From positions 134,192 through 198,191 of the forward strand of contig JAUWGH010000002.1 of the NCBI GenBank assembly GCA_030606485.1: a stretch of DNA of 64,000 nucleotides. The letters run 5' to 3'. Positions 42,728 through 56,527 of this stretch are shown piece by piece (position 1 is the stretch's first letter; every line of letters begins with the position of its first letter). The notes beneath the pieces are model-generated. The model saw only the letters and a list, made by a program, of their open reading frames with translations. It made no database searches and was not told the DNA's origin. Made by a program: the position numbers and the translations under genes. The DNA comes from Promethearchaeota archaeon (GTDB lineage Archaea; Asgardarchaeota; Lokiarchaeia; Sigyniarchaeales; SOKP01).

Positions 42728-42934
42728 TTATTGATGTCGATTGTATAACTTTACACCAATAATGCCCATTATAATTAAGAGGGAATAAAGAAACAAGGGA
42801 AATACGTAAAATTCTTGAAGATAAAAATAAAAATAAGCAAGAATTGCTAAACTAAAGAATATAACAAATAAACATATTGCATAGAATATACGGTCTAAAA
42901 TTATTTCTTTTCTCGGTCCTTTTCTCAAATTCAA
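42728..42934 (-). CDS. Small two-TM membrane protein
   Basis: 68 aa, co-directional with the giant protease gene and 45 nt downstream of it. Confidence 0.35.
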   Translation of the reverse strand: MNLRKGPRKEIILDRIFYAICLFVIFFSLAILAYFYFYLQEFYVFPLFLYSLLIIMGIIGVKLYNRHQ

Positions 42935-42979
42935 TACTCCTTAAATTTTATTCTATTTCTCTGTATTTTGATGATATTT

Positions 42980-45900
42980 TTAATAATGTTCGCCAATATC
43001 TTCTCCAAATTTTTTTAAATCAGAAAGTAATAGTTCTATTCGCTTCCTATTACTTAGCAGCAGCCTTATTTTATCGATTTCCTTTATATCCGGCATCCCA
43101 AGACCTAATCTCATCTGTTTAAATAACGTATTTGCCTGATTTATATAGGTTCTTGCTTGATTTAATAGTTTACCTTCTAAAGGTGTTATTGAAAGGCGTC
43201 TCTTTAATTTTGTAAAATTGTAAAACCATAAAATTCCACCCATTAAAATAATCATACAGATGGCAATTACATCAAAAATATGAGGATATCTAGGATTGGG
43301 ATATTCATATTCTTCATATGGTGGCTTGGGATCTTGAGATATAACATTAAATTTGAATGTTAATGTTTCCGCAGCTAATTCTGGATGATCTAAAATTAAA
43401 ACAAAATAATAATCACCTGTTTTGTCATACCAACTAGTATCAAAATAGACCATGAAGTTTCCTGGCTGTGTTTCAAACATCGGAAGTATCGGTATTTCGA
43501 ATCCCATTAATGAAACATTGATCATCGTCCCGTCTTTATATACAAACCCTGAAATGAAGAATAAATCGTCATCTAAATACTCTTTTGTCTCATTATAATT
43601 CAGTAAACTTGCGGTTAAATATAATTTATCCCCAGTTTTAACTGTATTATTTACAACGGATAGATTAAAGTTATAATATTTATTAAATGCCCATTTGCCA
43701 ATATTCAATGCGAATTTACTGTTATCATAGCTCTCAAGCCCAGAAATTCCAAACATATCTTTATCTCCTATAGCTATAACCCTCCCTTTACCATATGTTG
43801 CTAATGCAATATAATCACATAATACATTGACATTCTCGGAATTTGTATTTAATTTTTCAATATTAACCGGATCTTGTAATTTAATAGTCCCTACATTATC
43901 AAAAATGCCATATAAATTGGTACGATCATTAGCAGTGATATATTTATTTCCTATACTATATCCTGAAGTAGTAAGATTAAAATTTGATAAGATCTCATTA
44001 ATTGCAGTAATATTATTTTCTGTATTGTTTTCAATAAAGAAAACTAATGTGCCACCGCTTTGAACCCATTCTATAATATCTTCAGTTTCATTTGATGTAT
44101 AATATGTCTCTGGATCATTTAATATAAGTACATCGAAGAGTTGTATTATATCATGATTAATATTGTTTGTAGTTATGACCTCATTTTCCAGGTAATATGC
44201 ACCCAAAACGCTGCCCAATAAATTTTCCGTACCAGAAATATCTGTGGACATTGATGAAAGATCTAAAGTTGTTAAATTATATTCAATACCTGGCAATAGC
44301 GTCATAATTGTTGCTCCTTTAGGTTCCAAATTACTCCATAACTCACGCAATCCATAAAAATTTCCATAGGGGTGATCATATCTCTCATCCCATTCAAAAT
44401 TTATATCAGTTCCGCTCATATACAATGTTATATCATTATGAACTACATCAAAAAGCGCTCTTCCGCGGTAGTCTGATATTGTAAAGCTCACATTTAAATC
44501 ATAAAATTTTATATCCTTAGAGAAGAAAGAAATATTAAATGATATAGTTCCTGGTCTCGTAATTGGAGGTGCCATAACAAATAATGGAATGGAAAAATAT
44601 GGATCAACAAGACTATAATTTAAAGTTGTGTTAAATGTCATATCAACTGTAAATGCTGGGTCTGTTTGATCATCATCTTTGCCTACGAACCCTGTTAAAA
44701 GATCTGACAATCCTTCGCTAAAATTTAGGAGGATAAAATTACAAAATTGTTTCCCAAAATCGTCTATAGTAACACATAAATCCGGAATCTCAGTTAACGA
44801 GTAAATCGTAATATTATAAATGCCAAGATCTCCGGGAAACCATATTTTGAAGGGGATTTGATCAATTTTTTCAGGTGATATGAATAATGAATTCAAATTC
44901 CAATTTTGATATTGAATATAATCAATAATGTATATGTTTCGAACTAAATAATTGTTAAAAAGATTTTCATCAGTATTAGATGCGAAAAGTCCCATAGCTG
45001 GTTCAATTAAACTAATAATTAGTTCCAAACCTAATATCCAGCCACAAGTATAGACCCCTACGCTTGTTGGCGTCCAATTAGCGTTAAATTCTAAAATATC
45101 AAATGGTTTAAGGTTTTCTATGAGAAAAATAACAGAAAACACTTCTAAAACATCTTCTTCAGTCGTTTTATTAATAGCAAAGATGACTTCAGTAGAATTA
45201 ACTAAAGTAGTTCCAATATTCATTATTTTTACAGAGGATTCATATCTTTCATTAAGTTTCCCAATTCTAGAAAAATCAACTTCAAGTACAATTAAGTCAG
45301 TTACATTATTATAAATTGTAATATTTGAATTTATTCTTCTCATTTGATCAATCATTGCATCATAAGCAGAATTATTATCTGTACCAATGCCTGTTCCGAG
45401 TATTGATGTAAAATTTACTTGTTCATTTGGTTGAAAACTTTCCGCTAAATTCCAAATCATTGCAAATCCAGGATCTTCTAAACCTTGCTGATATGTAGAA
45501 ACATTCGCTAAATTATATGAACCATCTTCTAAAGTTAAATCTAATAATAAATTAGTGCTATCTCTAATTTCCCAAGAACTCAAATTATGTGAGGTTGAAT
45601 TAAATCCGATGGCTGTGAAATTAGAAGTATAATTATAAAATGTATTATTATTTTCATCATAAATATAAATCAATTCATCATTTTCATCATATTCACAAAT
45701 ATCATCAAGAGATGCGGTATTAGACTCCATATAATTTGTCATGTTTCCAGCAGTTTCATTTAAAAATAAATCAACTTTAAAAAATGAGACCAGTTGTAAG
45801 TTATTAATTTGGGAAAAACCTAAATTGAAAAAGTGCAAGGTAAATTGAAATGCGTTTATTCGATTGGTATAATTTTTAAAAACATAAGTATCCTCTTCAT

Positions 45901-47842
45901 ATTCTGCTGAATAATCCCAAGATTCAACGATAGCTACTATATAGAGTTCAATATCTTCAACTTTTAAAATGCTTAAATATCTTTTATATTTTTCATAACC
46001 GACAGGTTCTAGCGTTATTTGATGCATTTCTCGGATAACATTAAATTCCGAGAACCAATTGGTTCTAGAGTTATCATATCTTAATCCAAATTGATTTAAG
46101 AGTAGATGTATTGTAGTAAAATTAAAATCAGAACCATTATTTATCATCAATATTGGAAGCATTATTTGGGAACTTAAAAGAGCTGAAATATCATACACAT
46201 GCAAATCTGAAGGCCGATTAGGTGAGTTTGTTAAACTCATTGAATCTTGAGAATATATAACTCCAGGATAAATTAATGGAGCAGGTAAATTCAAGACATT
46301 ATATTGTTTTGCTGTAAAATAATCAAGTAAAAAGTTATAAGCTGCATATATATTGATTAATCCGGCACCTACAGTATTCTTATCATTAGAAACTTGAATA
46401 GTTGTACTTACCAAAGCATATCTTAATAATTCAGGTGTTGCTAGTGGAAATACTTCTAATAATAAGGCTATAGCACCACTTACTACAGCTGCTGCCGCAC
46501 CTGTACTACTAGCCATTGTATAATTTTCATTAATTGTAGTTCCATATTCTGGTTCTGGAAATGTCCCTTCAGGGATATAAAAATTTTCATACCCAAAATC
46601 ATCAAGTGTATAACCTAGGATTGAAAAGTTTTCTAAAGAGCCAGAAAATATTTTTGCTCTTGGACCAATTAGGTTTACACCAGGTGCGAGAATATCAGGA
46701 CACATTCTAAAGTCTAAGGAGGGACCTCTACTACTAAAGTCTGCAGCGTTTTGGTTAGAGTGATTGTATGCACCAACTGTGATTGATTTTAATGCCATTC
46801 CAGGAGTATCTAAACTCATATAACTACTCCCCTCATCTCCAGCAGGCGTAACTACAATAATACCTTTATCTACAATATTATTAATGGCTATTGATACAGG
46901 ATCATCATAAAAACCAGGAATACTAGCACAAAACAATAAAATATCTGCCCCATGTGCTAAAGACCACTCTATTCCTGAAATAATAAAAGACCAATAAGTA
47001 ATACCAATCGAATCATAAATTTTTACATTTAAATATGATGCGCCTGGAGCAACTCCCTTATATGAAGAGTTATATTTTCCTATTCCACAGGCGATTCCTG
47101 CATGAAAAGTACCTCGCCCATTAAAATCAGAGTAATATAATGGTTCTTCTGGGACTAGGGAAACAGAACCGACCACCTTGGTCTTTAGAGTGGTATTATC
47201 TTCAGATGGGAAACCTAAGTCGCCATCATATTGACCAGTAATATCAACTCCGGTATCCAATACAGAAATTATAATATTGGATCCATTATAACCTAAATCC
47301 CATAAATCCGTAGCGCCAATGATCTCTGTAAAATTGCAAAATGAGTCAGAACTCCCACTATTTGCTTGTTTTATATAATTTTCAATATCTTGAGTTAATT
47401 CAATTTTCCCGTTTTCCCAAATTGAAATTACATTTGGATAATCTGCAATTTTTTTAAAATCAGATATAAAACATTCCAATAATATACCATCAATTATTGT
47501 ATATTTCTTTTTAATTCCATATTGGATTTGATTTCCTTTTAAATATATTTCAAAATCAGTTAAAACCGAATTTTTGCCACTTGAATAATCAAATAGAATT
47601 ATTACTTCAATTTTTTTATCATCTTCCAAGTTATTTTCAATTACATGAAAATATAATTCTTTCAATTTATCACTCAATTTTTCTATTGGATTTTTGAGAA
47701 GAATTGAGTTGTCTTCCTCTGCAAAAGCACTCAAATTTGCTGATTTTGAAAGCATTAGATTTGAAAGTAAAAATATCCAAAAAATAAATAACGTAAATAG
47801 ATTTATTTTATATTTTTTTTTAATTGACTTCCATCTCCCCAT
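42980..47842 (-). CDS. 1620-aa type-I membrane protein: signal/TM, I9-like propeptide, S8 subtilase domain, long beta-rich N-glycosylation-sequon-rich region, GldG/IFT52 (GIFT)-like module, TM, 77-aa cytoplasmic tail
   Basis: S8 triad context SVLDTGVD (D196), GTFHAG (H247), MASSTGAAAAVVSG (S446). GIFT/ThuA-like pattern DVLILNDPETYYTSNETEDIIEWVQSGGTLVFF...GKGRVIAIGDKDMF. TM at aa 1521-1543 (nt 43214-43282). Start overlaps the upstream ABC ATPase gene by 23 nt. Confidence 0.8.
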   Translation of the reverse strand: MGRWKSIKKKYKINLFTLFIFWIFLLSNLMLSKSANLSAFAEEDNSILLKNPIEKLSDKLKELYFHVIENNLEDDKKIEVIILFDYSSGKNSVLTDFEIYLKGNQIQYGIKKKYTIIDGILLECFISDFKKIADYPNVISIWENGKIELTQDIENYIKQANSGSSDSFCNFTEIIGATDLWDLGYNGSNIIISVLDTGVDITGQYDGDLGFPSEDNTTLKTKVVGSVSLVPEEPLYYSDFNGRGTFHAGIACGIGKYNSSYKGVAPGASYLNVKIYDSIGITYWSFIISGIEWSLAHGADILLFCASIPGFYDDPVSIAINNIVDKGIIVVTPAGDEGSSYMSLDTPGMALKSITVGAYNHSNQNAADFSSRGPSLDFRMCPDILAPGVNLIGPRAKIFSGSLENFSILGYTLDDFGYENFYIPEGTFPEPEYGTTINENYTMASSTGAAAAVVSGAIALLLEVFPLATPELLRYALVSTTIQVSNDKNTVGAGLINIYAAYNFLLDYFTAKQYNVLNLPAPLIYPGVIYSQDSMSLTNSPNRPSDLHVYDISALLSSQIMLPILMINNGSDFNFTTIHLLLNQFGLRYDNSRTNWFSEFNVIREMHQITLEPVGYEKYKRYLSILKVEDIELYIVAIVESWDYSAEYEEDTYVFKNYTNRINAFQFTLHFFNLGFSQINNLQLVSFFKVDLFLNETAGNMTNYMESNTASLDDICEYDENDELIYIYDENNNTFYNYTSNFTAIGFNSTSHNLSSWEIRDSTNLLLDLTLEDGSYNLANVSTYQQGLEDPGFAMIWNLAESFQPNEQVNFTSILGTGIGTDNNSAYDAMIDQMRRINSNITIYNNVTDLIVLEVDFSRIGKLNERYESSVKIMNIGTTLVNSTEVIFAINKTTEEDVLEVFSVIFLIENLKPFDILEFNANWTPTSVGVYTCGWILGLELIISLIEPAMGLFASNTDENLFNNYLVRNIYIIDYIQYQNWNLNSLFISPEKIDQIPFKIWFPGDLGIYNITIYSLTEIPDLCVTIDDFGKQFCNFILLNFSEGLSDLLTGFVGKDDDQTDPAFTVDMTFNTTLNYSLVDPYFSIPLFVMAPPITRPGTISFNISFFSKDIKFYDLNVSFTISDYRGRALFDVVHNDITLYMSGTDINFEWDERYDHPYGNFYGLRELWSNLEPKGATIMTLLPGIEYNLTTLDLSSMSTDISGTENLLGSVLGAYYLENEVITTNNINHDIIQLFDVLILNDPETYYTSNETEDIIEWVQSGGTLVFFIENNTENNITAINEILSNFNLTTSGYSIGNKYITANDRTNLYGIFDNVGTIKLQDPVNIEKLNTNSENVNVLCDYIALATYGKGRVIAIGDKDMFGISGLESYDNSKFALNIGKWAFNKYYNFNLSVVNNTVKTGDKLYLTASLLNYNETKEYLDDDLFFISGFVYKDGTMINVSLMGFEIPILPMFETQPGNFMVYFDTSWYDKTGDYYFVLILDHPELAAETLTFKFNVISQDPKPPYEEYEYPNPRYPHIFDVIAICMIILMGGILWFYNFTKLKRRLSITPLEGKLLNQARTYINQANTLFKQMRLGLGMPDIKEIDKIRLLLSNRKRIELLLSDLKKFGEDIGEHY

Positions 47843-49514
47843 TTTTATTTTTTTTTGTTTTTGCTTTATCTATTTCTGGCTTAACACTGCTCACGTATGT
47901 AAAATAATCGATCATATCAATCGATACCTTAATATCTGCAGAGTCGATTGGGATGTGGTTCTCTTCAAGTGTTTCTAAGATAACATCCATTAATTTCTCT
48001 CGTTTCATATTTGAAAGCAATCTTATTCTTTCACCACGTTGTATAACAAAATCAATCTCTTTGATATCTTTTAAGATATCGAGTATTTCAAGTTGTATGG
48101 TCTTGAATTCAATTTCAACTGCATAACCCTTTCCCGGTAATTTTTTTTTTAATTCTTCAGGAGTTCCAAAATCATAAAAACCGATATCCTTCAAAAAAAT
48201 AGCTGCTTTATCACAATATTCAATTTCATCCAAATAATGAGAGATAACCACTAATGTAATATCATATTCTTTATTAATAAAATCCAAGTATTGCCAAAGT
48301 TCATATCGAGCTTGAGGATCAAGGCCAGAAGTTGGCTCATCCAAAAAAATAACATGAGGATTATGAACCATAGAAATCGCTATACTAACTCTTCTTTTTT
48401 GACCACCAGAAAGTGAATCGACCGGTTGATTTGCAACATTAGCAATTCCCAGATCTTCTAAAATCTTTTTTCCGCGTTGAATTATTATGTCTTCGGGAAT
48501 TCCGTATTGCCTACCGAAACTAACAATATTCTCTAATGCGTTAAAGTTTCCATACATTCTACTTAAATCTTGAGGAATGTATCCTATAAACGGAGAAACT
48601 GTCTTTGTATCTCTTGCATTATATCCAAATAGATAAATTTTACCCTTATAATCATATTCTCCCAGAATTGCTTTTAATGTGGTAGATTTACCGGCTCCCG
48701 ACTCTCCTATAATTCCTAAAATTTCTCCCCGATTCAATTCAAAATTTACATCATGAATTATAGTTTTACCTCCTAACTTGACGGATAAATCCTCTACTTC
48801 TAATACTTTTTTACCGAGTGCAAGTTCTTCCCCAATTTGAAATGCTATATTTTGTGGTTGAACTTTTCCAATGTCAGATTTATTAGACACTTGAACAACC
48901 CACTCTAAGCTAACAAATTCTTTAAACTCTTCATTTAATGGATTTTCTCGGTTAAATGCATCAAGCACTTCGATGATAAATTCTCTATTATCCACCTTTT
49001 TAATGGTTCCATAAACAACAACTTTTTCAGCTTTTTTTTCTGATAATAGAATTCCATCAATTAAACATGTAATTCGATATTTTGGTAGGAAGCTTTCTAA
49101 CCACTCTATTGCGTTATGATATTCTTTACCTCTAAAGAAAATTAATTCTTGACGATCAACTTTAAAACTATTCCTTAAAACAAAAATACTTGGATATAGC
49201 AATAAACTTTCTTTAGTTTTTCTAAAGTTACTTGGAATTTTTACTATATGTCTTCCAATGAGAATATTTTCAGAACCTAATTCACCTTCTTCTAACAATA
49301 GATACAATTCATCAGTAAAAATTTGGGATGTAAATTTTCTCAATAATGTACCTTTTGCTTTTATAAATTCTGAGTTAAACCAAGTCCCTGTAACCTCAAT
49401 GTCAATTATATAATTTTGCCGATCTTTTAACCAAAGAAAAATCTCATTAAATTGGTTAGCTGAGAAGATTGCCTCCTCTATTAATTCCTCCACACCAACT
49501 TTTCTTATTGTCAT
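47820..49514 (-). CDS. ABC transporter ATPase with ~235-aa uncharacterised N-terminal extension
   Basis: 564 aa. Walker A GESGAGKST, signature LSGGQKRRVSIA, Walker B IFLDEPTSGLD, and a C-terminal ~90-aa accessory domain. The N-terminal 235 aa have no recognised family. Confidence 0.85.
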   Translation of the reverse strand: MTIRKVGVEELIEEAIFSANQFNEIFLWLKDRQNYIIDIEVTGTWFNSEFIKAKGTLLRKFTSQIFTDELYLLLEEGELGSENILIGRHIVKIPSNFRKTKESLLLYPSIFVLRNSFKVDRQELIFFRGKEYHNAIEWLESFLPKYRITCLIDGILLSEKKAEKVVVYGTIKKVDNREFIIEVLDAFNRENPLNEEFKEFVSLEWVVQVSNKSDIGKVQPQNIAFQIGEELALGKKVLEVEDLSVKLGGKTIIHDVNFELNRGEILGIIGESGAGKSTTLKAILGEYDYKGKIYLFGYNARDTKTVSPFIGYIPQDLSRMYGNFNALENIVSFGRQYGIPEDIIIQRGKKILEDLGIANVANQPVDSLSGGQKRRVSIAISMVHNPHVIFLDEPTSGLDPQARYELWQYLDFINKEYDITLVVISHYLDEIEYCDKAAIFLKDIGFYDFGTPEELKKKLPGKGYAVEIEFKTIQLEILDILKDIKEIDFVIQRGERIRLLSNMKREKLMDVILETLEENHIPIDSADIKVSIDMIDYFTYVSSVKPEIDKAKTKKNKNGEMEVN

Positions 49515-49556
49515 TTTTTATTCTTTTTATAATTTTTTTTCCAATAAAATTTAAAT

Positions 49557-50738
49557 CTATAATAATACTTTTCTACGTCTGTAAAATAAATATGCTGCAA
49601 AAAATAAAATGATGCATTCACTATATTGAATTAAATAATAAATTGGTTCAGATAAAGGTGATTGTCCTCTTAGTGAAATGGATACAATTAAATAATTGGC
49701 ATTAGATAAGGGTAATAAACTTAAAATTAACTCATTTTGAACAAATAAAACACTAATTATTTGAAAAATAAAAACAAAAATAAAAAGCTGCAATGCTTCT
49801 AAGGGTTCTCTGGCTACAGAAGACATAAATAAACCGTATATAACTCCTAATAAAGCGCATAAGAATAAAATCCAGAAAAAATCAAAAACCGAGCCTCTTA
49901 TTTGTAATCCAAGAAAATAAGAAAATATAAAAAGAATTATAATTAAGAGTGTCATTGCAGTTTGCAATGAAATTAATTTTGAAAAGATTATTTCAAATTT
50001 ATTGGCGGGTGTTAATGCCATTCTATCTTTAGGAATATCAGAAACAATTAATTGAGCACCCGTTAAAGATGCAATTGCAAATATAACCATTGGAAAGAAT
50101 AATGGTGCTCCAGAAAAAAGTTGTCTACCTGTTTCAGGGATATTTGCTTGAGTAATTTCATAGTTAAAGACCCCGGTAAAGTTATTTTCTTCTCTAAAAT
50201 CTTCAATTATTATATCAATTATACCTTGAGATGCTTGAAGCTTTGAGAGTTCTAAAATATCGATTACGACAAATAATATTGCTGGAAAATGAATTGATAA
50301 ATTATATTCAAACATCTCAGGAATGATTATATAAACACTTATCACGCCTTTCCCTAACAAAATTTCTAATTCGGTTTGATTATTAGACTCGATAATCTCC
50401 ACCTCTCCTGTTTCCTCATATTGTCTACATTTATTTACAAACACTTTTGATAAATCAACATTTGGAAATCCTTCAGAATTGTCATCATCAATTAATCCAA
50501 TGATTGGAATCTCAAGTCCTCCACCCAGCATTGAAGCTAAGCCTCCCCCTGCATCATCATCTCCCAGTCCAACACCTCCGAATACACCACCAAGAAAAAG
50601 AACTAAAAAAATTGGTAAAGCAAAAATTATTAGCATTGCAAAAATATCCTTCATCAGTACTCTCAATTCTTTCAAATAAAGTCCTTGGATTCTATAAATG
50701 CTTTTTGTTAATTTCTCTAGTTTTCCCATTGAGCTCAC
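49557..50738 (-). CDS. ABC-2 type permease (N-terminal TM, large external loop, five C-terminal TMs)
   Basis: 393 aa. Topology and composition typical of the ABC2_membrane_3 family. The loop contains a Gly/Asp-rich stretch (GGVGLGDDDAGGGLASMLGGG). Confidence 0.7.
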   Translation of the reverse strand: MSSMGKLEKLTKSIYRIQGLYLKELRVLMKDIFAMLIIFALPIFLVLFLGGVFGGVGLGDDDAGGGLASMLGGGLEIPIIGLIDDDNSEGFPNVDLSKVFVNKCRQYEETGEVEIIESNNQTELEILLGKGVISVYIIIPEMFEYNLSIHFPAILFVVIDILELSKLQASQGIIDIIIEDFREENNFTGVFNYEITQANIPETGRQLFSGAPLFFPMVIFAIASLTGAQLIVSDIPKDRMALTPANKFEIIFSKLISLQTAMTLLIIILFIFSYFLGLQIRGSVFDFFWILFLCALLGVIYGLFMSSVAREPLEALQLFIFVFIFQIISVLFVQNELILSLLPLSNANYLIVSISLRGQSPLSEPIYYLIQYSECIILFFAAYLFYRRRKVLL

Positions 50739-50757
50739 TTATATAAATGATTTTTTT

Positions 50758-51891
50758 TTAAACAAACTCCTTTTTAATATATTGAAAATATAAAATATTA
50801 ATAACAAAAAAGAACAGGGTTACAATCGATAAATTTAATATATTTGGCCAAACTTCAAATAAAGATTTACCTCGATATGCTAAATCGATAAATGCGGCAG
50901 TTGCTTGTTCCAGTGGTAAAAAATTAACAATTGCTGGAATCCTTACAATTTGAGTTATTAATAACATCATTATAAAAAAGAATAGAAATAACTGTGAGGA
51001 TTGCAATCGGGTAGAGCTGATAGAAGAAAAGAATACTCCAATGACTATGCTATTTAATGCAAAAATTAATAATATTAAAAATAATTCAATGAAGAGACAT
51101 CTATATTGGATTCCAAATCCAAATTCCAAAAATAATAAAATTAATACAATTTGAAATAAGGCTAAAATTAAATAAGCACTGATTTTTGCAATAATCACTT
51201 CAAATCTGAATGTTGGTGTTGTTAAAAGTCTTTTTAATGGTTTATCTCCTACAATACATTGTGTTGTGATCAAATTCAAGCATGCAAAAATCATTATAGT
51301 AGTGAGAAATGGAGCAGCCATTTGTAAGATATTTATTGTTTCTTGTGGTTTCATTATGGGAAAATAGAAAACATCACTTTCAAATTGTTGATTTATCATT
51401 TGGTAATGGACAGTTGCATCCAAAATTGAAGCTTGAGCGGTAAATGCAGCAAAAAAATCAATGTAATCAATATAAATTGGTAATTCAGTTGATTTGTTGT
51501 TTTTTAGATTTTCAGAAAAATTTTCAATTAAAATTATGTATGCTACAATTTCTACTGTTGGTAATTTTTCCTTAGCATATTCCTCGAATTCAGTTGCGTT
51601 CATATTGAAATCTTCTTTAACTTTCACAAAAACATCCATTGTTGTGTTAAACTTAAACATATCAATGAATTCTTGAGATTTTTCAGAATCATCATAATCG
51701 ATAATATAAAGGTCTACCGAGCCTCCCATTAAAGAAAATTCACCTAACCCAATTAAAGTTATGATACAAATAGGAATTATAAATAAAATAAACATTGAAA
51801 TTTTATCTTTAAGTAATGTATCCAATTCCTTTCTAATTAATGAAAATATTCGTTTTCTTCGCTCTTTTAAAGATCTAATATCGATACTCAT
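50758..51891 (-). CDS. ABC-2 type permease, paralog of 49557..50738
   Basis: 377 aa with the same topology, 19 nt upstream of its paralog. Confidence 0.7.
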   Translation of the reverse strand: MSIDIRSLKERRKRIFSLIRKELDTLLKDKISMFILFIIPICIITLIGLGEFSLMGGSVDLYIIDYDDSEKSQEFIDMFKFNTTMDVFVKVKEDFNMNATEFEEYAKEKLPTVEIVAYIILIENFSENLKNNKSTELPIYIDYIDFFAAFTAQASILDATVHYQMINQQFESDVFYFPIMKPQETINILQMAAPFLTTIMIFACLNLITTQCIVGDKPLKRLLTTPTFRFEVIIAKISAYLILALFQIVLILLFLEFGFGIQYRCLFIELFLILLIFALNSIVIGVFFSSISSTRLQSSQLFLFFFIMMLLITQIVRIPAIVNFLPLEQATAAFIDLAYRGKSLFEVWPNILNLSIVTLFFFVINILYFQYIKKEFV

Positions 51892-52013
51892 AATCTATTT
51901 CTATTATTCTCCTATAAAATAAAATAAAATAAAACAATAAGAATATAAATAAATATTCTAAAAATTTTAAATATAATAAGTGTTCAGTATTTCTTAAAAT
52001 ATTTCAAGTAAAT

Positions 52014-53021
52014 ATGTCCAAGATTAAAGCTTCTGGCAAAATTGATAATTTAAAAGATGAATATTCAGATTTTAGCCTAATTTTAGATAAAATATATGCA
52101 AGTTATGAGAGTGGAAAAAATGTTCTTGAAGATATATCATTTAGGGCTAAAAAAGGAGATATTCTTGGAATTATCGGAGGCAGTGGTGCTGGTAAATCCA
52201 CTATTTTAAGAGCAATGACAGGTCAATTAGATAGAAAAATCCTACATAAAGGAAATGTGATAACTGCTGGCATAGATGTTCTAAAAAGTAACAAAGAATT
52301 AATAAATAAGATTGGATACGTTCCCCAACTAGAATATCTTTCATTATATTTTGAATTTAATGCCATAGATAATTGCATCTTTTTTGGAAAGAATTATCAA
52401 TTAGATAAAAATACAATTAGAGAGAATGCAAAAGAAATTTTAGAAGTTTTGGGGTTTGATGATGAATTAATGCATAAACCAGTAAAAAAGTTATCTGGTG
52501 GAGAGAAAAAAAGAGTTAGTATCGCTGTAGGATTAATTAATACCCCAGAGATCTTATTTTTGGACGAACCAACAACGGGTTTAGATCCTCATCTTCGACT
52601 TGCAGTTCTAAATGTCTTATTAAAAATAAATAGAAAATATAACACAACTATTGTAATTGTCAGTCATAATCTTGAAATCTCTGATTACTGTGACTTAATT
52701 GTGGTTTTAATCAAAGGAAAATTAAGAAGTTTTGGTAGTGCTGATGATATGATTCAATCACTTCCATCAGGCGGTAGGGTGGTTTTATGTAAATTCAAAT
52801 ATCTTGATTTGAATCAAATTAAAGCAATTAAGAGGTTACAGAACGTGGAATTTGTATTACATTCTGGAAGAAATCAAATTAAATTATTTTTAAAAGATTT
52901 TTCACAATTCAGGAAGACATATAACCAATTAATTGAATTAAATCTTCCTCTGTCATCCTTTTCCATAAAGCCAGCTAGCTTTATTGATTATTTTCGCATA
53001 ATTGGGGAGAAAGCAATATAG
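52014..53021 (+). CDS. ABC transporter ATPase (second, divergently transcribed)
   Basis: 335 aa. GGSGAGKST, LSGGEKKRVSIA, LFLDEPTTGLD. The C-terminal accessory domain is similar to that of the 564-aa ATPase. Confidence 0.85.
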   Translation: MSKIKASGKIDNLKDEYSDFSLILDKIYASYESGKNVLEDISFRAKKGDILGIIGGSGAGKSTILRAMTGQLDRKILHKGNVITAGIDVLKSNKELINKIGYVPQLEYLSLYFEFNAIDNCIFFGKNYQLDKNTIRENAKEILEVLGFDDELMHKPVKKLSGGEKKRVSIAVGLINTPEILFLDEPTTGLDPHLRLAVLNVLLKINRKYNTTIVIVSHNLEISDYCDLIVVLIKGKLRSFGSADDMIQSLPSGGRVVLCKFKYLDLNQIKAIKRLQNVEFVLHSGRNQIKLFLKDFSQFRKTYNQLIELNLPLSSFSIKPASFIDYFRIIGEKAI

Positions 53022-53195: not shown

Positions 53196-53525
53196 TCAAT
53201 CTTTGATTGTTTCTAGAAGGCTTATTAGGCGATAAATCATTGTGCGAGCGTGGAATGGGCAATTTGGGTCAGTGCTTAAATCACCGATTAGTGATAGCGC
53301 ATTACTAGCTAATACAGCAGGGGAATCATCGCCAACTTTTAAATTATCGAGAGCTTTTTGAGCTTTTCTCTTTATATTACGTGGGACTGTACGATCTTGA
53401 AGAAGCATTTCGATTAATGTTGCAACATCTGCAAAAGCTTCTCTTATCTCTTTTTTAAATTTACTCCATACATCGCTCATATATAATTCACCTATGTTGA
53501 TATCAAAAAGAGTATCCATCGACAA
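53196..53525 (-). CDS. UPF0147-family small archaeal protein
   Basis: VPRNIKRKA and DPNCPFHARTMIY blocks typical of UPF0147. The likely start is the ATG at 53480 (94 aa). Confidence 0.7.
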   Translation of the reverse strand: MSMDTLFDINIGELYMSDVWSKFKKEIREAFADVATLIEMLLQDRTVPRNIKRKAQKALDNLKVGDDSPAVLASNALSLIGDLSTDPNCPFHARTMIYRLISLLETIKD

Positions 53526-53617: not shown

Positions 53618-56527
53618 TTATATAATTTGATTTATTTTTTTCAATATTTTGGGGATTTCTTTAGAATAATCAACTATTTTTTCTTTATAGGTATCTCTAA
53701 GTTCAGTAAAATCATCATATTTTTTATTTTTAATTTTATTCACGAAATTAACACCTAATTCAGATAATTCCCCAAATAATTGATTTATCTGTCTATCCTT
53801 CTCAATTATGGTTGAATCAATCTTCTTCCTTTTCTTTCGTATATAATTTCTTAACTTACCTCGAGGAATCCGCAAATCTTCAATCATTTTATCACAATGG
53901 ATAAGTAAATTATACGCAAGAACTTTTTCTCCCTCCTTTAACGAGTCTTCGATTACTTCAGTTCTCCAAGTTAAAATTCTACCTCTAGCGTAAGTATCAG
54001 GGTTCAAAGATATACTATCTATTTTTTGTTTAATTAAAAATTTTAAAAACTCTGGATAATCACTAGGAGCCTGGCCGCAAATCCCCACGTATTTTCTGCG
54101 TTCGTGAGCAACTTTTATTAAATGTTCAATAGCTCGCTTAATTGCTTCACTATTGGCGATATAATTATATTTTTCCGCAAGAGGGAATAATTTTTGATTA
54201 TCTCTACCACAACCAAAGACTAACTGTGTTAAATCATTTGAACCAATTGAAAATCCATCAAAATAATTACAAAAAATGTCAGCTAGAAATATGTTTGATG
54301 GAATTTCTGCCATCACATAAACTTTTAATCCATCTTGACCTCTTACAAGTCCTTCCACTTGCATTAATTTAATAATTGCTTCTGCTTCATCTGGGGTTCT
54401 ACAAAATGGAACCATAGGAGTAATATTTGTCAAACCCCATGATCGAGCTCTTTTCATAGCACGTAATTCCAAACGAAATGCTTCCTCGAAATCTTCAGAA
54501 ACATATCTTGAACCACCTCTAAATCCTAGCATTGGATTATTTTCATCATGTTCGTATAACCAGCCGCCAATAAGATTTTTATATTCATTTGTTTTAAAAT
54601 CGGAAAGCCTTACCACAGCTTCAGCAATAGAACCATCGTGTAAAGTTTTCCAAACTCCAGCAGCTATTGTTGCAATACCCTCAGCTAACTTTTGAACATA
54701 GTATTCCTCTTTATTATCATATCCAGCTGTAAGTTCTGCAATTTTTTCTAAAGTATTTTTTAAATTCTCGATTTTTTGTACGAATGGATCTTTTTTTGTT
54801 AAATCACTCTTTTTTAATGATTCAATTTGTTCTTTTTTTTCTAATAATTCATGCATATAAATAATTAAATCATCAAAATGTAATAATGCATTAGGATGAA
54901 TTTGGATCAAATCATTGATAATAAATTCTAATCTTGCAAGACCTGTTCCATCGGGATATTTTCCGGATGATAAGGCTCCTTTTGGAATCCCAAGATTTAC
55001 TAAAATTTTGGTTTTAGTTCTTGGTAAGTTATTAAACTCTATTGTATCATAATCAAACTCAACTTCTCCGCCCCAGATTCTTGCTTCTCCTTCAGAACAA
55101 TCAATAGTAATCGAAAGATTCCCTTTTCTTGCATATTCCTTAAGAATTTGGACAATATTATCAGCACCTACAATTGAAGCTAGTTCTAATTCACGTGAAA
55201 CAATGGCAGCATGACACGTTGGTCCACCTCTTTCAGTTATTACTCCATTTAGATTTTGCATATAAGAAGTCCAATCAGGATTAGTTTCTAAAGTAACTAA
55301 TATATCTCCCTCCTCCAGAAGATGAGCATAATTAATATCTTCAATTACTTTTAATCTACCAATTGCGATTTTACGACCAATAGCAGTACCATTTGAACTT
55401 ATCAATTTGTTATTTTTTTTTAAATCTTGAGTATTTTCAATCAAATAATAGATTTCTTCTTTATCCCCCTTTATCGAATGAACTGTTTCTGGACGCGCTT
55501 GGACAATATAAATCTTATCATTATTTCCTATAGCCCATTCTATATCCATACGCTTTCCATAATGTTCTCGAATTTTCATACCATATTTGGCAAGTTCAAT
55601 TGCTTGTTCTCCAGTCAAGCAGAAATGATTTTGCAATTCAACAGGAACGGGAATTGTTTTTGTTCCGCCGATTTCTGTATCGAATACTAATTGATTCTTT
55701 TTAGTAACAAGATCACTGGCAATTATTGTAAGACCTTTTGGATTATGTTTGAAAATAATATTTTCATCTCCTTCTTCTGCTCCCTGGACAATTAATTCTC
55801 CTAAACCCCATACGCCTCTTATAACAATAACATTTTCGTTTCCTGAATCTGGATCTTCTGTAAACATTACTCCTGATGACTTTACTCCACCTAAGCCACC
55901 TGCCATTTCTTGAACTCCAACAGCTAATTTAACATCAAAATGATCATAACCCGATCTCTCTCTATAAGCTGTAGCACGCGTAGTGAAGATTGAGGCCATA
56001 TCTTTTAAAATATATTTTAAAATATTTTCTTCGCCACTAATATTTAAGTGAGTATCTTGTTGCCCTGCAAAACTTGATTCTGGTAAATCTTCTGCAGTTG
56101 CACTGGAACGGATTGCAAATGATGTATCTTCTCCAATTTTTTCTAGTAATTTATGATAAGCATCTAAAATTTCATCTTGCATACTATCAGGTATTTGGGA
56201 TTGTTCAATTGCAGTTCTAATGCTTGCACAAATCTGATCTACTCTCTGTATTGCCGAAATATCCTCACTTTGTAGTTCTTTTTTTATTGAACCAATTTGT
56301 CTTCGAATATATTCTTTTAGTGTAATTTCTTCATTTTTTATTGTATAATAATTATTTTCCAAAATGTAGTCAAATGCACTAGCACTTACTGCAAATCCTA
56401 ATGGAACAGGTATACCAAAACTTAATAATTCACCTAAACTTGCGTTCTTACCTCCTACGAGGTCAATATCAGAGGTCCTTACATCCTCAAAAAACTTAAT
56501 AAATCGATAATTGCTTAAAGACGACAT
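53618..56527 (-). CDS. ppsA: Phosphoenolpyruvate synthase / pyruvate,water dikinase-like enzyme with C-terminal extension
   Basis: 969 aa. ATP-grasp N-terminus GGKNASLGEL, phosphohistidine swivel GGPTCHAAIVSREL, PEP-utilising TIM barrel with GSNDLTQL. An extra ~111 aa Lys-rich helical tail follows. Confidence 0.85.
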   Translation of the reverse strand: MSSLSNYRFIKFFEDVRTSDIDLVGGKNASLGELLSFGIPVPLGFAVSASAFDYILENNYYTIKNEEITLKEYIRRQIGSIKKELQSEDISAIQRVDQICASIRTAIEQSQIPDSMQDEILDAYHKLLEKIGEDTSFAIRSSATAEDLPESSFAGQQDTHLNISGEENILKYILKDMASIFTTRATAYRERSGYDHFDVKLAVGVQEMAGGLGGVKSSGVMFTEDPDSGNENVIVIRGVWGLGELIVQGAEEGDENIIFKHNPKGLTIIASDLVTKKNQLVFDTEIGGTKTIPVPVELQNHFCLTGEQAIELAKYGMKIREHYGKRMDIEWAIGNNDKIYIVQARPETVHSIKGDKEEIYYLIENTQDLKKNNKLISSNGTAIGRKIAIGRLKVIEDINYAHLLEEGDILVTLETNPDWTSYMQNLNGVITERGGPTCHAAIVSRELELASIVGADNIVQILKEYARKGNLSITIDCSEGEARIWGGEVEFDYDTIEFNNLPRTKTKILVNLGIPKGALSSGKYPDGTGLARLEFIINDLIQIHPNALLHFDDLIIYMHELLEKKEQIESLKKSDLTKKDPFVQKIENLKNTLEKIAELTAGYDNKEEYYVQKLAEGIATIAAGVWKTLHDGSIAEAVVRLSDFKTNEYKNLIGGWLYEHDENNPMLGFRGGSRYVSEDFEEAFRLELRAMKRARSWGLTNITPMVPFCRTPDEAEAIIKLMQVEGLVRGQDGLKVYVMAEIPSNIFLADIFCNYFDGFSIGSNDLTQLVFGCGRDNQKLFPLAEKYNYIANSEAIKRAIEHLIKVAHERRKYVGICGQAPSDYPEFLKFLIKQKIDSISLNPDTYARGRILTWRTEVIEDSLKEGEKVLAYNLLIHCDKMIEDLRIPRGKLRNYIRKKRKKIDSTIIEKDRQINQLFGELSELGVNFVNKIKNKKYDDFTELRDTYKEKIVDYSKEIPKILKKINQII

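Follow-up and report, generated by a model that had tools for sequence, protein, structure and literature searches.

The DNA analysed here, a 64,000-nucleotide (nt) stretch of a Promethearchaeota contig (hereafter, the window), contains a group of six genes encoding two ATP-binding cassette (ABC) ATPases, two ABC-2 type permeases, a protein of 1620 residues (the giant protein) and a small membrane protein. We favour, with moderate confidence, the reading that the giant protein is a glycoprotein serving as a non-proteolytic, GldG/OST48-like accessory subunit of an ABCA-like ABC-2 transporter, and that its subtilase-fold head is a non-catalytic binding module. Gene content, domain folds, the loss of catalytic residues and conserved linkage are shown by the analysis. 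Coordinates are positions in the window and residue numbers refer to its giant protein unless stated otherwise. The features are listed in Table 1.

The head of the giant protein matches Peptidase_S8 (PF00082) over the full length of the model (5.4e-36, residues 187-494), and the family profile aligns with solved S8 proteases (Tk-SP, 1e-65; subtilisin BPN', 1e-42). In the alignment to BPN' and Tk-SP (BPN' numbering), Asp32 is retained as D196. The catalytic His64 is replaced by R243 (DFNG-R-GT versus DNNS-H-GT), the nucleophile Ser221 by G448 (SST-G-AAA versus NGT-S-MAS), and the oxyanion Asn155 by D336. In 34 aligned homologues, R predominates in place of His (V, I, K, S and T also occur) and G in place of Ser, and nearly all have D where the Asn would be. 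Active-site residues were also read directly in 13 loci. The serine is absent from all 12 ABC-linked proteins examined, with G, K, T or A instead, and the histidine is lost in the proteins of the Loki type (gene arrangements are described below). The remaining fold is strongly conserved and retains dozens of invariant Gly, Pro and Asp residues. Thus the domain is under selection, but not for catalysis. Judging from its sequence, the head is a member of the S8 fold but a pseudoenzyme, and the loss of His, Ser and the oxyanion Asn suggests a binding or recognition module rather than a protease. The current annotation name, S8 family serine peptidase, is misleading for the ABC-linked clade.

The sequence-only reading of this DNA had assumed an active surface protease head, and an ABC-powered system displaying, activating or moving a surface protease of the subtilisin type is indeed what the strong Peptidase_S8 match, the I9-like propeptide region, the retained Asp32 and the better preserved active sites of some relatives (see below) would fit. 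However, three catalytic positions are substituted in the window protein, the serine is missing throughout the ABC-linked proteins examined, and P0042, the sole relative that retains all of D, H, N and S, is encoded away from any ABC genes. This explanation is thus very unlikely. P0042 itself (L006:2632-5430, Ca. Asgardarchaeum, GCA_040225955.1) is a protein of 932 residues with the canonical motif GTSAATP. It consists of an S8 domain, a GIFT domain, a C-terminal transmembrane (TM) segment and a short Pro-rich tail. The S8 domain is closest to Tk-SP, and PF23090, the Pfam model of MBTPS1, scores just 18 bits. By its sequence, P0042 looks like an active archaeal protease with the layout of the site-1 protease (S1P).

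The N-terminus of the giant protein contains a hydrophobic segment (residues 12-33) followed by SKSANLSAFA, a candidate signal peptide that is presumably cleaved. An I9 propeptide had been suggested between this segment and the S8 domain. No Pfam match to Inhibitor_I9 (PF05922) was found in the giant protein at E<0.1. However, the family profile aligns from position 42 with the propeptide of Tk-SP (3afg) from residue 12 onward, and from position 68 with the propeptide of subtilisin E (3whi) from residue 9 onward, which makes an I9-like propeptide before the S8 domain plausible. As the nucleophile is absent, such a propeptide could not be removed by autoprocessing. One possibility is that it stays bound to the head, as the prodomain of PCSK9 does.

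Among the homologues of the giant protein, one is 100% identical and about 40 are full-length; the names of their genomes (Promethearchaeota, Lokiarchaeia, Hodarchaeales, Harpocratesius and similar) mark the source of the window as an Asgard archaeon. A scan of genome contigs produced mostly generic S8 proteases, the true relatives being just those in loci L007-L010. The association of the giant gene with ABC genes, which the sequence-only reading took from the window, is conserved: of 15 distinct loci, 13 have ABC-2 genes adjoining the giant gene, with identities as low as 25-29%. In the Loki type, the gene order is short ATPase, permease, permease, long ATPase, giant protein, small two-TM protein (L001, L003, L004, L007, L091, L092). 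Among these, L004 is from Harpocratesius (29% identity) and L092 from the cultured Ca. Lokiarchaeum ossiferum (CP104013.1, positions 468831-488645). The same set with a divergent short ATPase gene was observed in the window and in L088. In the Thor type, the order is permease, long ATPase, giant protein, short ATPase, with a single permease gene (L008, L009, L010, L090; L008 is from Thorarchaeota). In L089, the ABC genes are divergent from the giant gene. No ABC genes are situated nearby in L005 and L006, which encode P0038 and P0042, respectively. The six-gene Loki-type or four-gene Thor-type set is thus found in Lokiarchaeia/Promethearchaeota and Thorarchaeota.

The genes flanking the set are unrelated between loci. 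The long ATPase and giant genes overlap by a few to 23 nt in the window, L003, L008, L009 and L092, which suggests co-translation. The linkage is real and old, and its retention through four gene arrangements argues for a functional tie. A chance neighbourhood, with a surface glycoprotein gene lying beside an unrelated ABC operon, might explain the two relatives without ABC genes and the changing position of the short ATPase gene. It does not explain adjacency in 13 loci from both Lokiarchaeia and Thorarchaeota, in four gene orders and with wholly different flanks, and we hold it to be the least probable of the explanations considered.

The C-terminal part of the giant protein had been compared with GldG and IFT52 at residues 1226-1385. 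The GIFT fold is confirmed by AlphaFold2 (AF2) modelling, Foldseek and profile comparison, and the domain is larger than that, covering approximately residues 1125-1390. The best Pfam match of this anchor module is DUF4350 (residues 1239-1380; 28.4 bits, just below the cut-off of 30.4), and there are weak sub-threshold matches to ABC_transp_aux and IFT52_GIFT near residues 1225-1380. In the precomputed annotation, DUF4350 is recorded in most homologues, and PF23355, PF14258 and PF09822 in many of them. The sequence profile of the module matches the GIFT domains of IFT52 (1.3e-12) and S1P (residues 696-860, 1.1e-5), and Wbp1 (0.007). Residues G1127, R1128, F1131, D1132 and H1135 are near-invariant, and E1252, G1264 and G1359 are invariant.

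The AF2 model of residues 1100-1620 (pLDDT 85) contains the alpha/beta domain, a beta-sandwich, a long TM helix (model residues 422-451) and a two-helix hairpin, predicted to be cytoplasmic (model residues 459-483 and 489-517). In a Foldseek search against the PDB, the top matches of this model were OST48/Wbp1 structures (7e-13 to 1.4e-10, about 435-503 aligned columns), namely human 6s7t_G (7e-13) and yeast 6c26_B and 6ezn_G. They were followed by IFT52 GIFT (TMt 0.64-0.68), S1P (8uw8_A, 5.8e-7) and trimerisation domains of GH42. Alignments of about 490 columns thus take in the beta-sandwich and the TM helix together with the GIFT domain. In the tail, K1545, R1549, R1593, L1596 and G1617 are near-invariant. 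All ABC-linked members have this conserved tail, which the ABC-less P0042 lacks.

An exhaustive profile search gave 72 cluster representatives at E<1e-30, the best of which carry the entire anchor module, and thousands more proteins with the GIFT core alone. Seven proteins of 1,900-4,000 residues (P0140, P0141, P0148, P0150-P0152, P0169) have 6-10 separate GIFT-core matches each, and in smaller relatives DUF4350/GIFT occurs together with PKD, CARDB, dockerin or Por_Secre_tail domains. Thus GIFT is a common building block of giant prokaryotic surface proteins.

Between the head and the anchor, residues 495-1124 are predicted to form a stalk and not an enzyme. The AF2 model (mdc838b617f4e; residues 495-1125, alignment of 44 sequences, pLDDT 84) is a chain of beta-sandwiches. 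Its Foldseek matches are integrin alpha legs, MG domains of alpha-2-macroglobulin, transglutaminase barrels and the CARDB domain of Pyrococcus PF1109 (TMt 0.70). The ectodomain contains 41 N-x-S/T sequons, compared with 19.1 +/- 3.9 in composition-preserving shuffles; the stalk holds 24 of them, and the region of the TM segment and tail just one. The giant protein is probably heavily N-glycosylated. The candidate signal peptide and the twofold enrichment of sequons in the predicted outer part, with just one in the tail region, point to an extracellular ectodomain. The giant protein probably belongs among the large cell-surface glycoproteins of Asgard archaea. The surface of the cultured Asgard strains is not known to have an S-layer, and its molecular make-up is poorly known.

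As proposed from the window sequence, the permeases belong to the ABC2_membrane families. Both match ABC2_membrane_3 (PF12698; 2.2e-22 for permease 1 and 2.4e-15 for permease 2), and permease 1 also matches ABC2_membrane_2 (27.3 bits, cut-off 27.2). They are paralogues (29% identity, E 5e-24), and their hydrophobic segments suggest TM1, an extracytoplasmic loop of about 130 residues and five more TM segments. No solved relative of the permeases was detectable by sequence search. Orthologues of permease 1 were found in all Loki-type loci. The heterodimeric ABC-2 transporter that had been proposed agrees with the presence of two paralogous permeases and two ATPases. However, two permeases occur only in the Loki type, and the Thor type has one.

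The short ATPase matches ABC_tran (1.6e-26) and the drrA subfamily (3.9e-46), as does the long ATPase (9e-30 and 2.5e-52, respectively). The two are 37% identical over the nucleotide-binding domain (NBD) and the C-terminal domain, and in both of them Walker A, Q-loop, signature, Walker B and H-loop are intact. The best solved relatives of the NBD of the long ATPase are the NBD2 domains of ABCA3, ABCA7, ABCA4 and ABCA1 (1e-54 to 7e-45). The scores of both ATPases with the GldA model TIGR03522 (115-145 bits) are far below the cut-off of 402.6, and thus they are not GldA equivalogs. Orthologues of the short ATPase adjoin the giant gene in L001, L003, L004 and L007 (47-53% identity) and are situated downstream of it in L008-L010 (42-45% identity). 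Most relatives have the short ATPase gene either at the start of the operon or immediately after the giant gene.

The long ATPase has an N-terminal extension of about 235 residues, predicted to be a cytoplasmic domain. It is conserved in all eight aligned orthologues, with invariant E13, F17, W28, R32, G43, G55, N115, G154 and G169, and eight of these nine residues stay invariant in an alignment of 16 sequences. There is no Pfam match to the extension in the window protein, and two profiles found no match in the PDB. Short matches to Regulator_TrmB, the effector-binding domain of archaeal sugar-sensing regulators, occur in the orthologues P0318, P0320 and P0378 (about 25 bits, cut-off 22.2, about 50 residues). 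They hint at a cytoplasmic ligand-binding role of the extension, although the profile searches of the PDB gave no confirmation. The full-length long ATPase retrieves more than 100 Asgard protein clusters with at least 94% query coverage, the extension included, whereas the extension alone retrieves none, which is not evidence of absence. Names among these clusters also include Helarchaeota, Hodarchaeales, Jordarchaeales, Freyrarchaeum and Sigynarchaeota.

The small protein has two hydrophobic segments and no Pfam match. Proteins of 63-81 residues with the same layout are encoded after the giant gene in L001, L003, L004, L007, L088, L091 and L092. The gene is absent from Thor-type loci and was left uncalled by gene callers in L087 and L088.

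The similarity of the NBDs to ABCA lipid exporters and drrA, the intact ATPase motifs and the 41 sequons of the giant protein would also suit an ordinary exporter of the ABCA/DrrAB type, transporting a lipid, glycolipid, polymer or drug. In that case the giant protein would be an acceptor, a scaffold or a co-regulated neighbour, with no stable complex or mechanical coupling; for example, it might need the exported molecule for its own lipid or glycan modification. However, this leaves unexplained the cytoplasmic hairpin conserved only in ABC-linked members and P0038, the dedicated N-terminal domain of the long ATPase, and the tight overlap of the long ATPase and giant genes. In addition, no such system is known to be involved in the flipping of archaeal N-glycans. 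We consider an ordinary exporter possible, though doubtful.

Alternatively, the giant protein might be the cargo, and the ABC system the machine for its secretion, membrane insertion or extraction. The conserved adjacency is compatible with this, and gliding-type systems with GldA/F/G have been discussed in connection with secretion (PMC5898192). However, the giant protein has its own N-terminal signal sequence and C-terminal TM segment, which fit Sec-dependent export. Permeases of the ABC-2/ABCA type are not known to translocate folded proteins of 180 kDa. A role as cargo is highly improbable.

Several points weigh against the preferred reading, that is, a non-proteolytic accessory subunit with a binding head. 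The loss of catalytic residues is not uniform in the wider family, because the Thor-type members retain the catalytic His and the distant relative P0039 retains D, H and S. In Loki-type proteins, a conserved histidine, H247, is situated four residues past the lost catalytic one, and a residual or unconventional activity is conceivable. Two relatives, P0038 and P0042, lack adjacent ABC genes, and P0038 nevertheless has the conserved tail. The thresholds of the GldG models are not reached in the giant protein (PF09822, 18 bits against 34.7; no TIGR03521 match at E<0.1). The analogy with GldG explains little, as the mechanism of GldG itself is unknown. Finally, the physical complex of the giant protein and the ABC subunits is inferred, as are the topology and all functional steps.

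With these reservations, the locus may encode an envelope complex of Asgard archaea, built around an ABCA/DrrA-like (type V) transporter with a pair of distinct ATPases and, in Lokiarchaeia, a pair of paralogous permeases. The C-terminal part of the giant protein (GIFT domain, beta-sandwich, TM segment and hairpin) would dock onto the transporter in a role analogous to that of GldG. The cytoplasmic hairpin would probably contact the NBDs or the N-terminal domain of the long ATPase, and in the Loki-type version the small two-TM protein would join the complex. The Ig-like stalk would display the subtilase-fold head as a binding or recognition module. ATP hydrolysis could either export a substrate of the lipid or glycolipid type beside this scaffold, or be transmitted mechanically to the scaffold, as in the action of FtsEX on EnvC.

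A more far-reaching proposal combines two claims. One is that the system is an ATP-driven surface machine specific to Asgard archaea, in which nucleotide-dependent movement of the ABCA-like transporter is passed through the GIFT anchor and the hairpin to a glycoprotein stalk of 1,600 residues with the dead-subtilase receptor at its tip. The other is that the anchor and the S8-GIFT-TM relatives with an intact triad, such as P0042, represent the prokaryotic stock of OST48/Wbp1 and S1P. Such a machine could be used for contact with syntrophic partners or particles. We regard the combined proposal as unlikely.

The six open reading frames (ORFs), their strands, gaps and overlap, and the 122-bp divergent spacer agree to the base with the sequence-only reading, and the S8 domain, the beta-rich sequon-dense middle, the GIFT module, the TM segment and the tail lie where that reading had placed them. 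The minus-strand spacings, in gene order, are 19 nt, 42 nt, an overlap of 23 nt (long ATPase and giant genes) and 45 nt. Permease 2 has 390 residues in the gene-caller prediction. The spacer presumably holds promoters for both directions. The divergent arrangement over the spacer is retained in L088, a relative with 65% identity. No operator was evident in the alignment of the window and L088 spacers, which showed just AT-rich TATA-like stretches.

Table 1. Features of the locus in the window and predicted domains of its long ATPase and giant protein (aa, amino acids)
Feature	Position	Strand	Size or residues	Remarks
Short ABC ATPase	52014-53021	+	335 aa	NBD and DrrA/ABCA-type C-terminal domain; divergent
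Intergenic spacer	51892-52013		122 bp	AT-rich, between divergent genes
Permease 1	50758-51891	-	377 aa	ABC-2
Permease 2	49557-50738	-	393 aa	ABC-2; GTG start
Long ABC ATPase	47820-49514	-	564 aa	
Long ATPase, N-terminal extension	48810-49514	-	~235 aa	conserved, predicted cytoplasmic domain
Long ATPase, NBD and C-terminal regulatory-type domain	47820-48809	-	aa 236-564	
Giant protein	42980-47842	-	1620 aa	
Giant, candidate signal peptide / N-terminal hydrophobic segment	47723-47842	-	aa 1 to ~40	
Giant, I9-like propeptide region	47348-47710	-	~aa 45-165	profile alignment to known propeptides
Giant, subtilase-fold domain with degenerate active site	46361-47284	-	aa 187-494	Pfam Peptidase_S8
Giant, predicted stalk of several beta-sandwich (Ig/CARDB/macroglobulin-like) domains	44471-46360	-	aa 495-1124	AF2 and Foldseek
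Giant, GIFT / DUF4350-type alpha/beta domain	43673-44470	-	~aa 1125-1390	Pfam, profile, AF2, Foldseek
Giant, membrane-proximal beta-sandwich	43328-43672	-	~aa 1391-1505	strands at model residues 293-402
Giant, C-terminal TM helix	43211-43288	-	~aa 1519-1544	hydrophobic segment
Giant, basic cytoplasmic tail	42983-43210	-	~76-77 aa	predicted helical hairpin
Small membrane protein	42728-42934	-	68 aa	TTG start; two-TM hairpin

The operon of the window is flanked by a UPF0147 gene (53196-53525, minus strand) and by a gene of the PEP synthase/PPDK family encoding 969 residues with a long Lys-rich C-terminal extension (53618-56527, minus strand). Both are neighbours of the locus in L088 as well. In L001 (GCA_021498095.1, contig of 4.36 Mb), an ESCRT cluster (L001:18016-20955) with genes for EAP30/Vps22-like and ESCRT-II/Vps25-like proteins and Vps4 with a MIT domain is situated 3 kb downstream of the operon. 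It was not seen in other loci, and thus the proximity is probably coincidental.

In the Thor-type loci, a protein of 770-785 residues is encoded divergently upstream of the operon (L008:2917-5268, L009:4428-6785 and L090:546-2858, all on the minus strand). It has no Pfam match, and the L008 and L009 copies are 47% identical. A shared partner gene was sought by comparing the Thor-type genes of 783 and 785 codons with the genes of 777 and 676 codons that precede the two ABC-less relatives; the comparison showed no homology between the groups. Directly after the Thor-type short ATPase gene, a protein of 2265-2276 residues is encoded (L009:15251-22081, L090:11296-18093, and L008 from 13658 to the contig end). 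It contains dozens of acidic repeats of the calcium-binding type DxDxD...L.D, similar to thrombospondin type 3, and a C-terminal TM segment. It is a second giant surface protein, which may form part of the Thor-type cluster. The protein P0038 (L005, contig k141_2040223) bears in NCBI the name of a bacterium, 'Candidatus Deferrimicrobium sp.'. However, archaeal genes are present on the contig (proteasome alpha, exosome Csl4-like, RNA polymerase subunit L, TFIIS-type zinc ribbon), which was probably binned into the wrong genome.

Several known systems resemble parts of this locus. Substituted catalytic residues are known in the S8 domains of CspA and CspC of Clostridioides difficile, which are receptors or regulators, and NCBIfam gives a weak CspBA match in the giant protein. 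However, CspA and CspC are bacterial, cytoplasmic or spore-associated, and have no GIFT domain, TM segment or ABC partner. In FtsEX-EnvC, an ABC ATPase is coupled to a catalytically dead peptidase fold, and EnvC acts by binding. Both FtsEX-EnvC and FtsEX-PcsB/RipC offer an analogy of an ABC ATPase/permease with an extracytoplasmic partner of peptidase fold. However, FtsX is a type VII (MacB-like) permease and EnvC is a soluble protein of the LytM fold, so this is a functional model only, with no homology implied. An anti-phage defence system was also considered and rejected, since PADLOC gives just generic matches to the ABC ATPase and the subtilase domain.

The transporter itself is similar to ABCA and DrrAB (type V), with TM1, a large outer domain and five TM segments in the permeases, and a C-terminal domain in the ATPases. 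By sequence, the two ATPases and two permeases appear to reproduce the pseudo-heterodimeric ABCA layout in four polypeptides. Unlike ABCA and DrrAB, the subunits are four separate polypeptides, and there are an extra N-terminal domain in one ATPase and a giant accessory protein.

In GldA/GldF/GldG, the gliding-associated ABC transporter of Bacteroidota, an ABC-2 transporter is paired with a GIFT protein. These and the widespread 'ABC-type uncharacterized transport system' with ABC_transp_aux (PF09822) share with the window an ABC-2 transporter encoded together with a membrane-anchored extracytoplasmic GIFT protein. GldG, which has TM segments at both ends and is not known to have an S8 head, Ig stalk or cytoplasmic hairpin, differs from the giant protein. 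The window system is also distinguished from GldA/F/G by ABC2_membrane_3 permeases with a large outer loop and by two ATPases, one of them with an extra N-terminal domain. Thus the likeness to a GldG partner, first suggested by the sequence-only reading, holds as far as a GIFT protein encoded with ABC-2 genes is concerned, but as an analogy only: ABC_transp_aux is below threshold, the best match is DUF4350/arCOG01314, and the closest structures are OST48/Wbp1.

Proteins of arCOG01314/DUF4350 have a signal peptide, a GldG-like domain of flavodoxin fold and a C-terminal TM segment (Makarova, Galperin, Koonin 2015, PMC5898192). Their operons contain vWA proteins and MoxR-type AAA+ ATPases, and a secretion or membrane-remodelling complex was predicted (PMC5898192). 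The giant protein likewise has a candidate signal peptide, a DUF4350/GIFT domain predicted to be extracellular and a single C-terminal TM segment. However, arCOG01314 proteins have neither ABC-2 neighbours nor a subtilase head. No vWA or MoxR AAA+ genes are present in the loci read, where ABC-2 genes occur instead.

OST48/Wbp1, a subunit of the eukaryotic oligosaccharyltransferase, is the closest structural counterpart of the anchor. Its N-terminal GIFT-type domain, beta-sandwich and single TM segment align with the C-terminal 520 residues of the giant protein, although with low global TM-scores (0.3-0.4) and marginal similarity in sequence. OST48_N (PF03345) has no match in the window protein. 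OST48 lacks the S8 head and the stalk of the giant protein, and its partner is STT3 rather than an ABC transporter; none of the loci read showed an AglB/STT3 gene. Asgard homologues of WBP1/OST48 were reported only from Heimdallarchaeia (Eme et al., PMC10307638), whereas the giant family occurs in genomes with Loki- and Thor-type loci.

A fusion of S8 and GIFT domains, which the sequence-only reading did not know to be described, exists in eukaryotes. S1P consists of a prodomain, S8, P-like and GIFT domains (the latter at residues 617-998), followed by a TM segment, and it alone among proprotein convertases has a GIFT subdomain (PMC11231238). The ABC-less P0042 with its intact triad shows this fusion as well. 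S1P and the giant protein share, in the same order, a signal peptide, an I9-type prodomain, an S8 domain, one or more beta domains, a GIFT domain, a TM segment and a basic cytosolic tail, as far as these are predicted in the latter. However, S1P is an active protease with the triad and has no ABC partner, whereas the window protein lacks His, Ser and the oxyanion Asn. A specific affinity to S1P was considered and rejected, as the profile scores 225 bits with Tk-SP, 149 with subtilisin and 130 with S1P, and P0042 is also nearest to Tk-SP. Further, PF23090 has no match in the window protein, and the P-like domain of S1P is not among the top 50 Foldseek matches of the stalk. Independent fusion is more likely than orthology.

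Taken separately, the parts are of known kinds: the pairing of an ABC-2 transporter and a GIFT accessory, the pseudo-subtilase, and the S8-GIFT-TM layout. What is apparently undescribed is their combination and its confinement to Asgard archaea, as well as the extended ATPase and the conserved hairpin in the cytoplasm; the literature found does not describe the system, which is not proof of absence. The pseudo-subtilase would join the short list of pseudoenzymes apparently coupled to an ABC ATPase. Since the cultured Ca. Lokiarchaeum ossiferum has the Loki-type set, the system can be tested experimentally. Asgard archaea thus carry two otherwise eukaryotic architectures, S8-GIFT-TM as in S1P, and GIFT with a beta-sandwich and a TM segment as in OST48. 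This bears on the origin of eukaryotic GIFT membrane proteins, and the data so far point to independent assembly rather than to direct descent.

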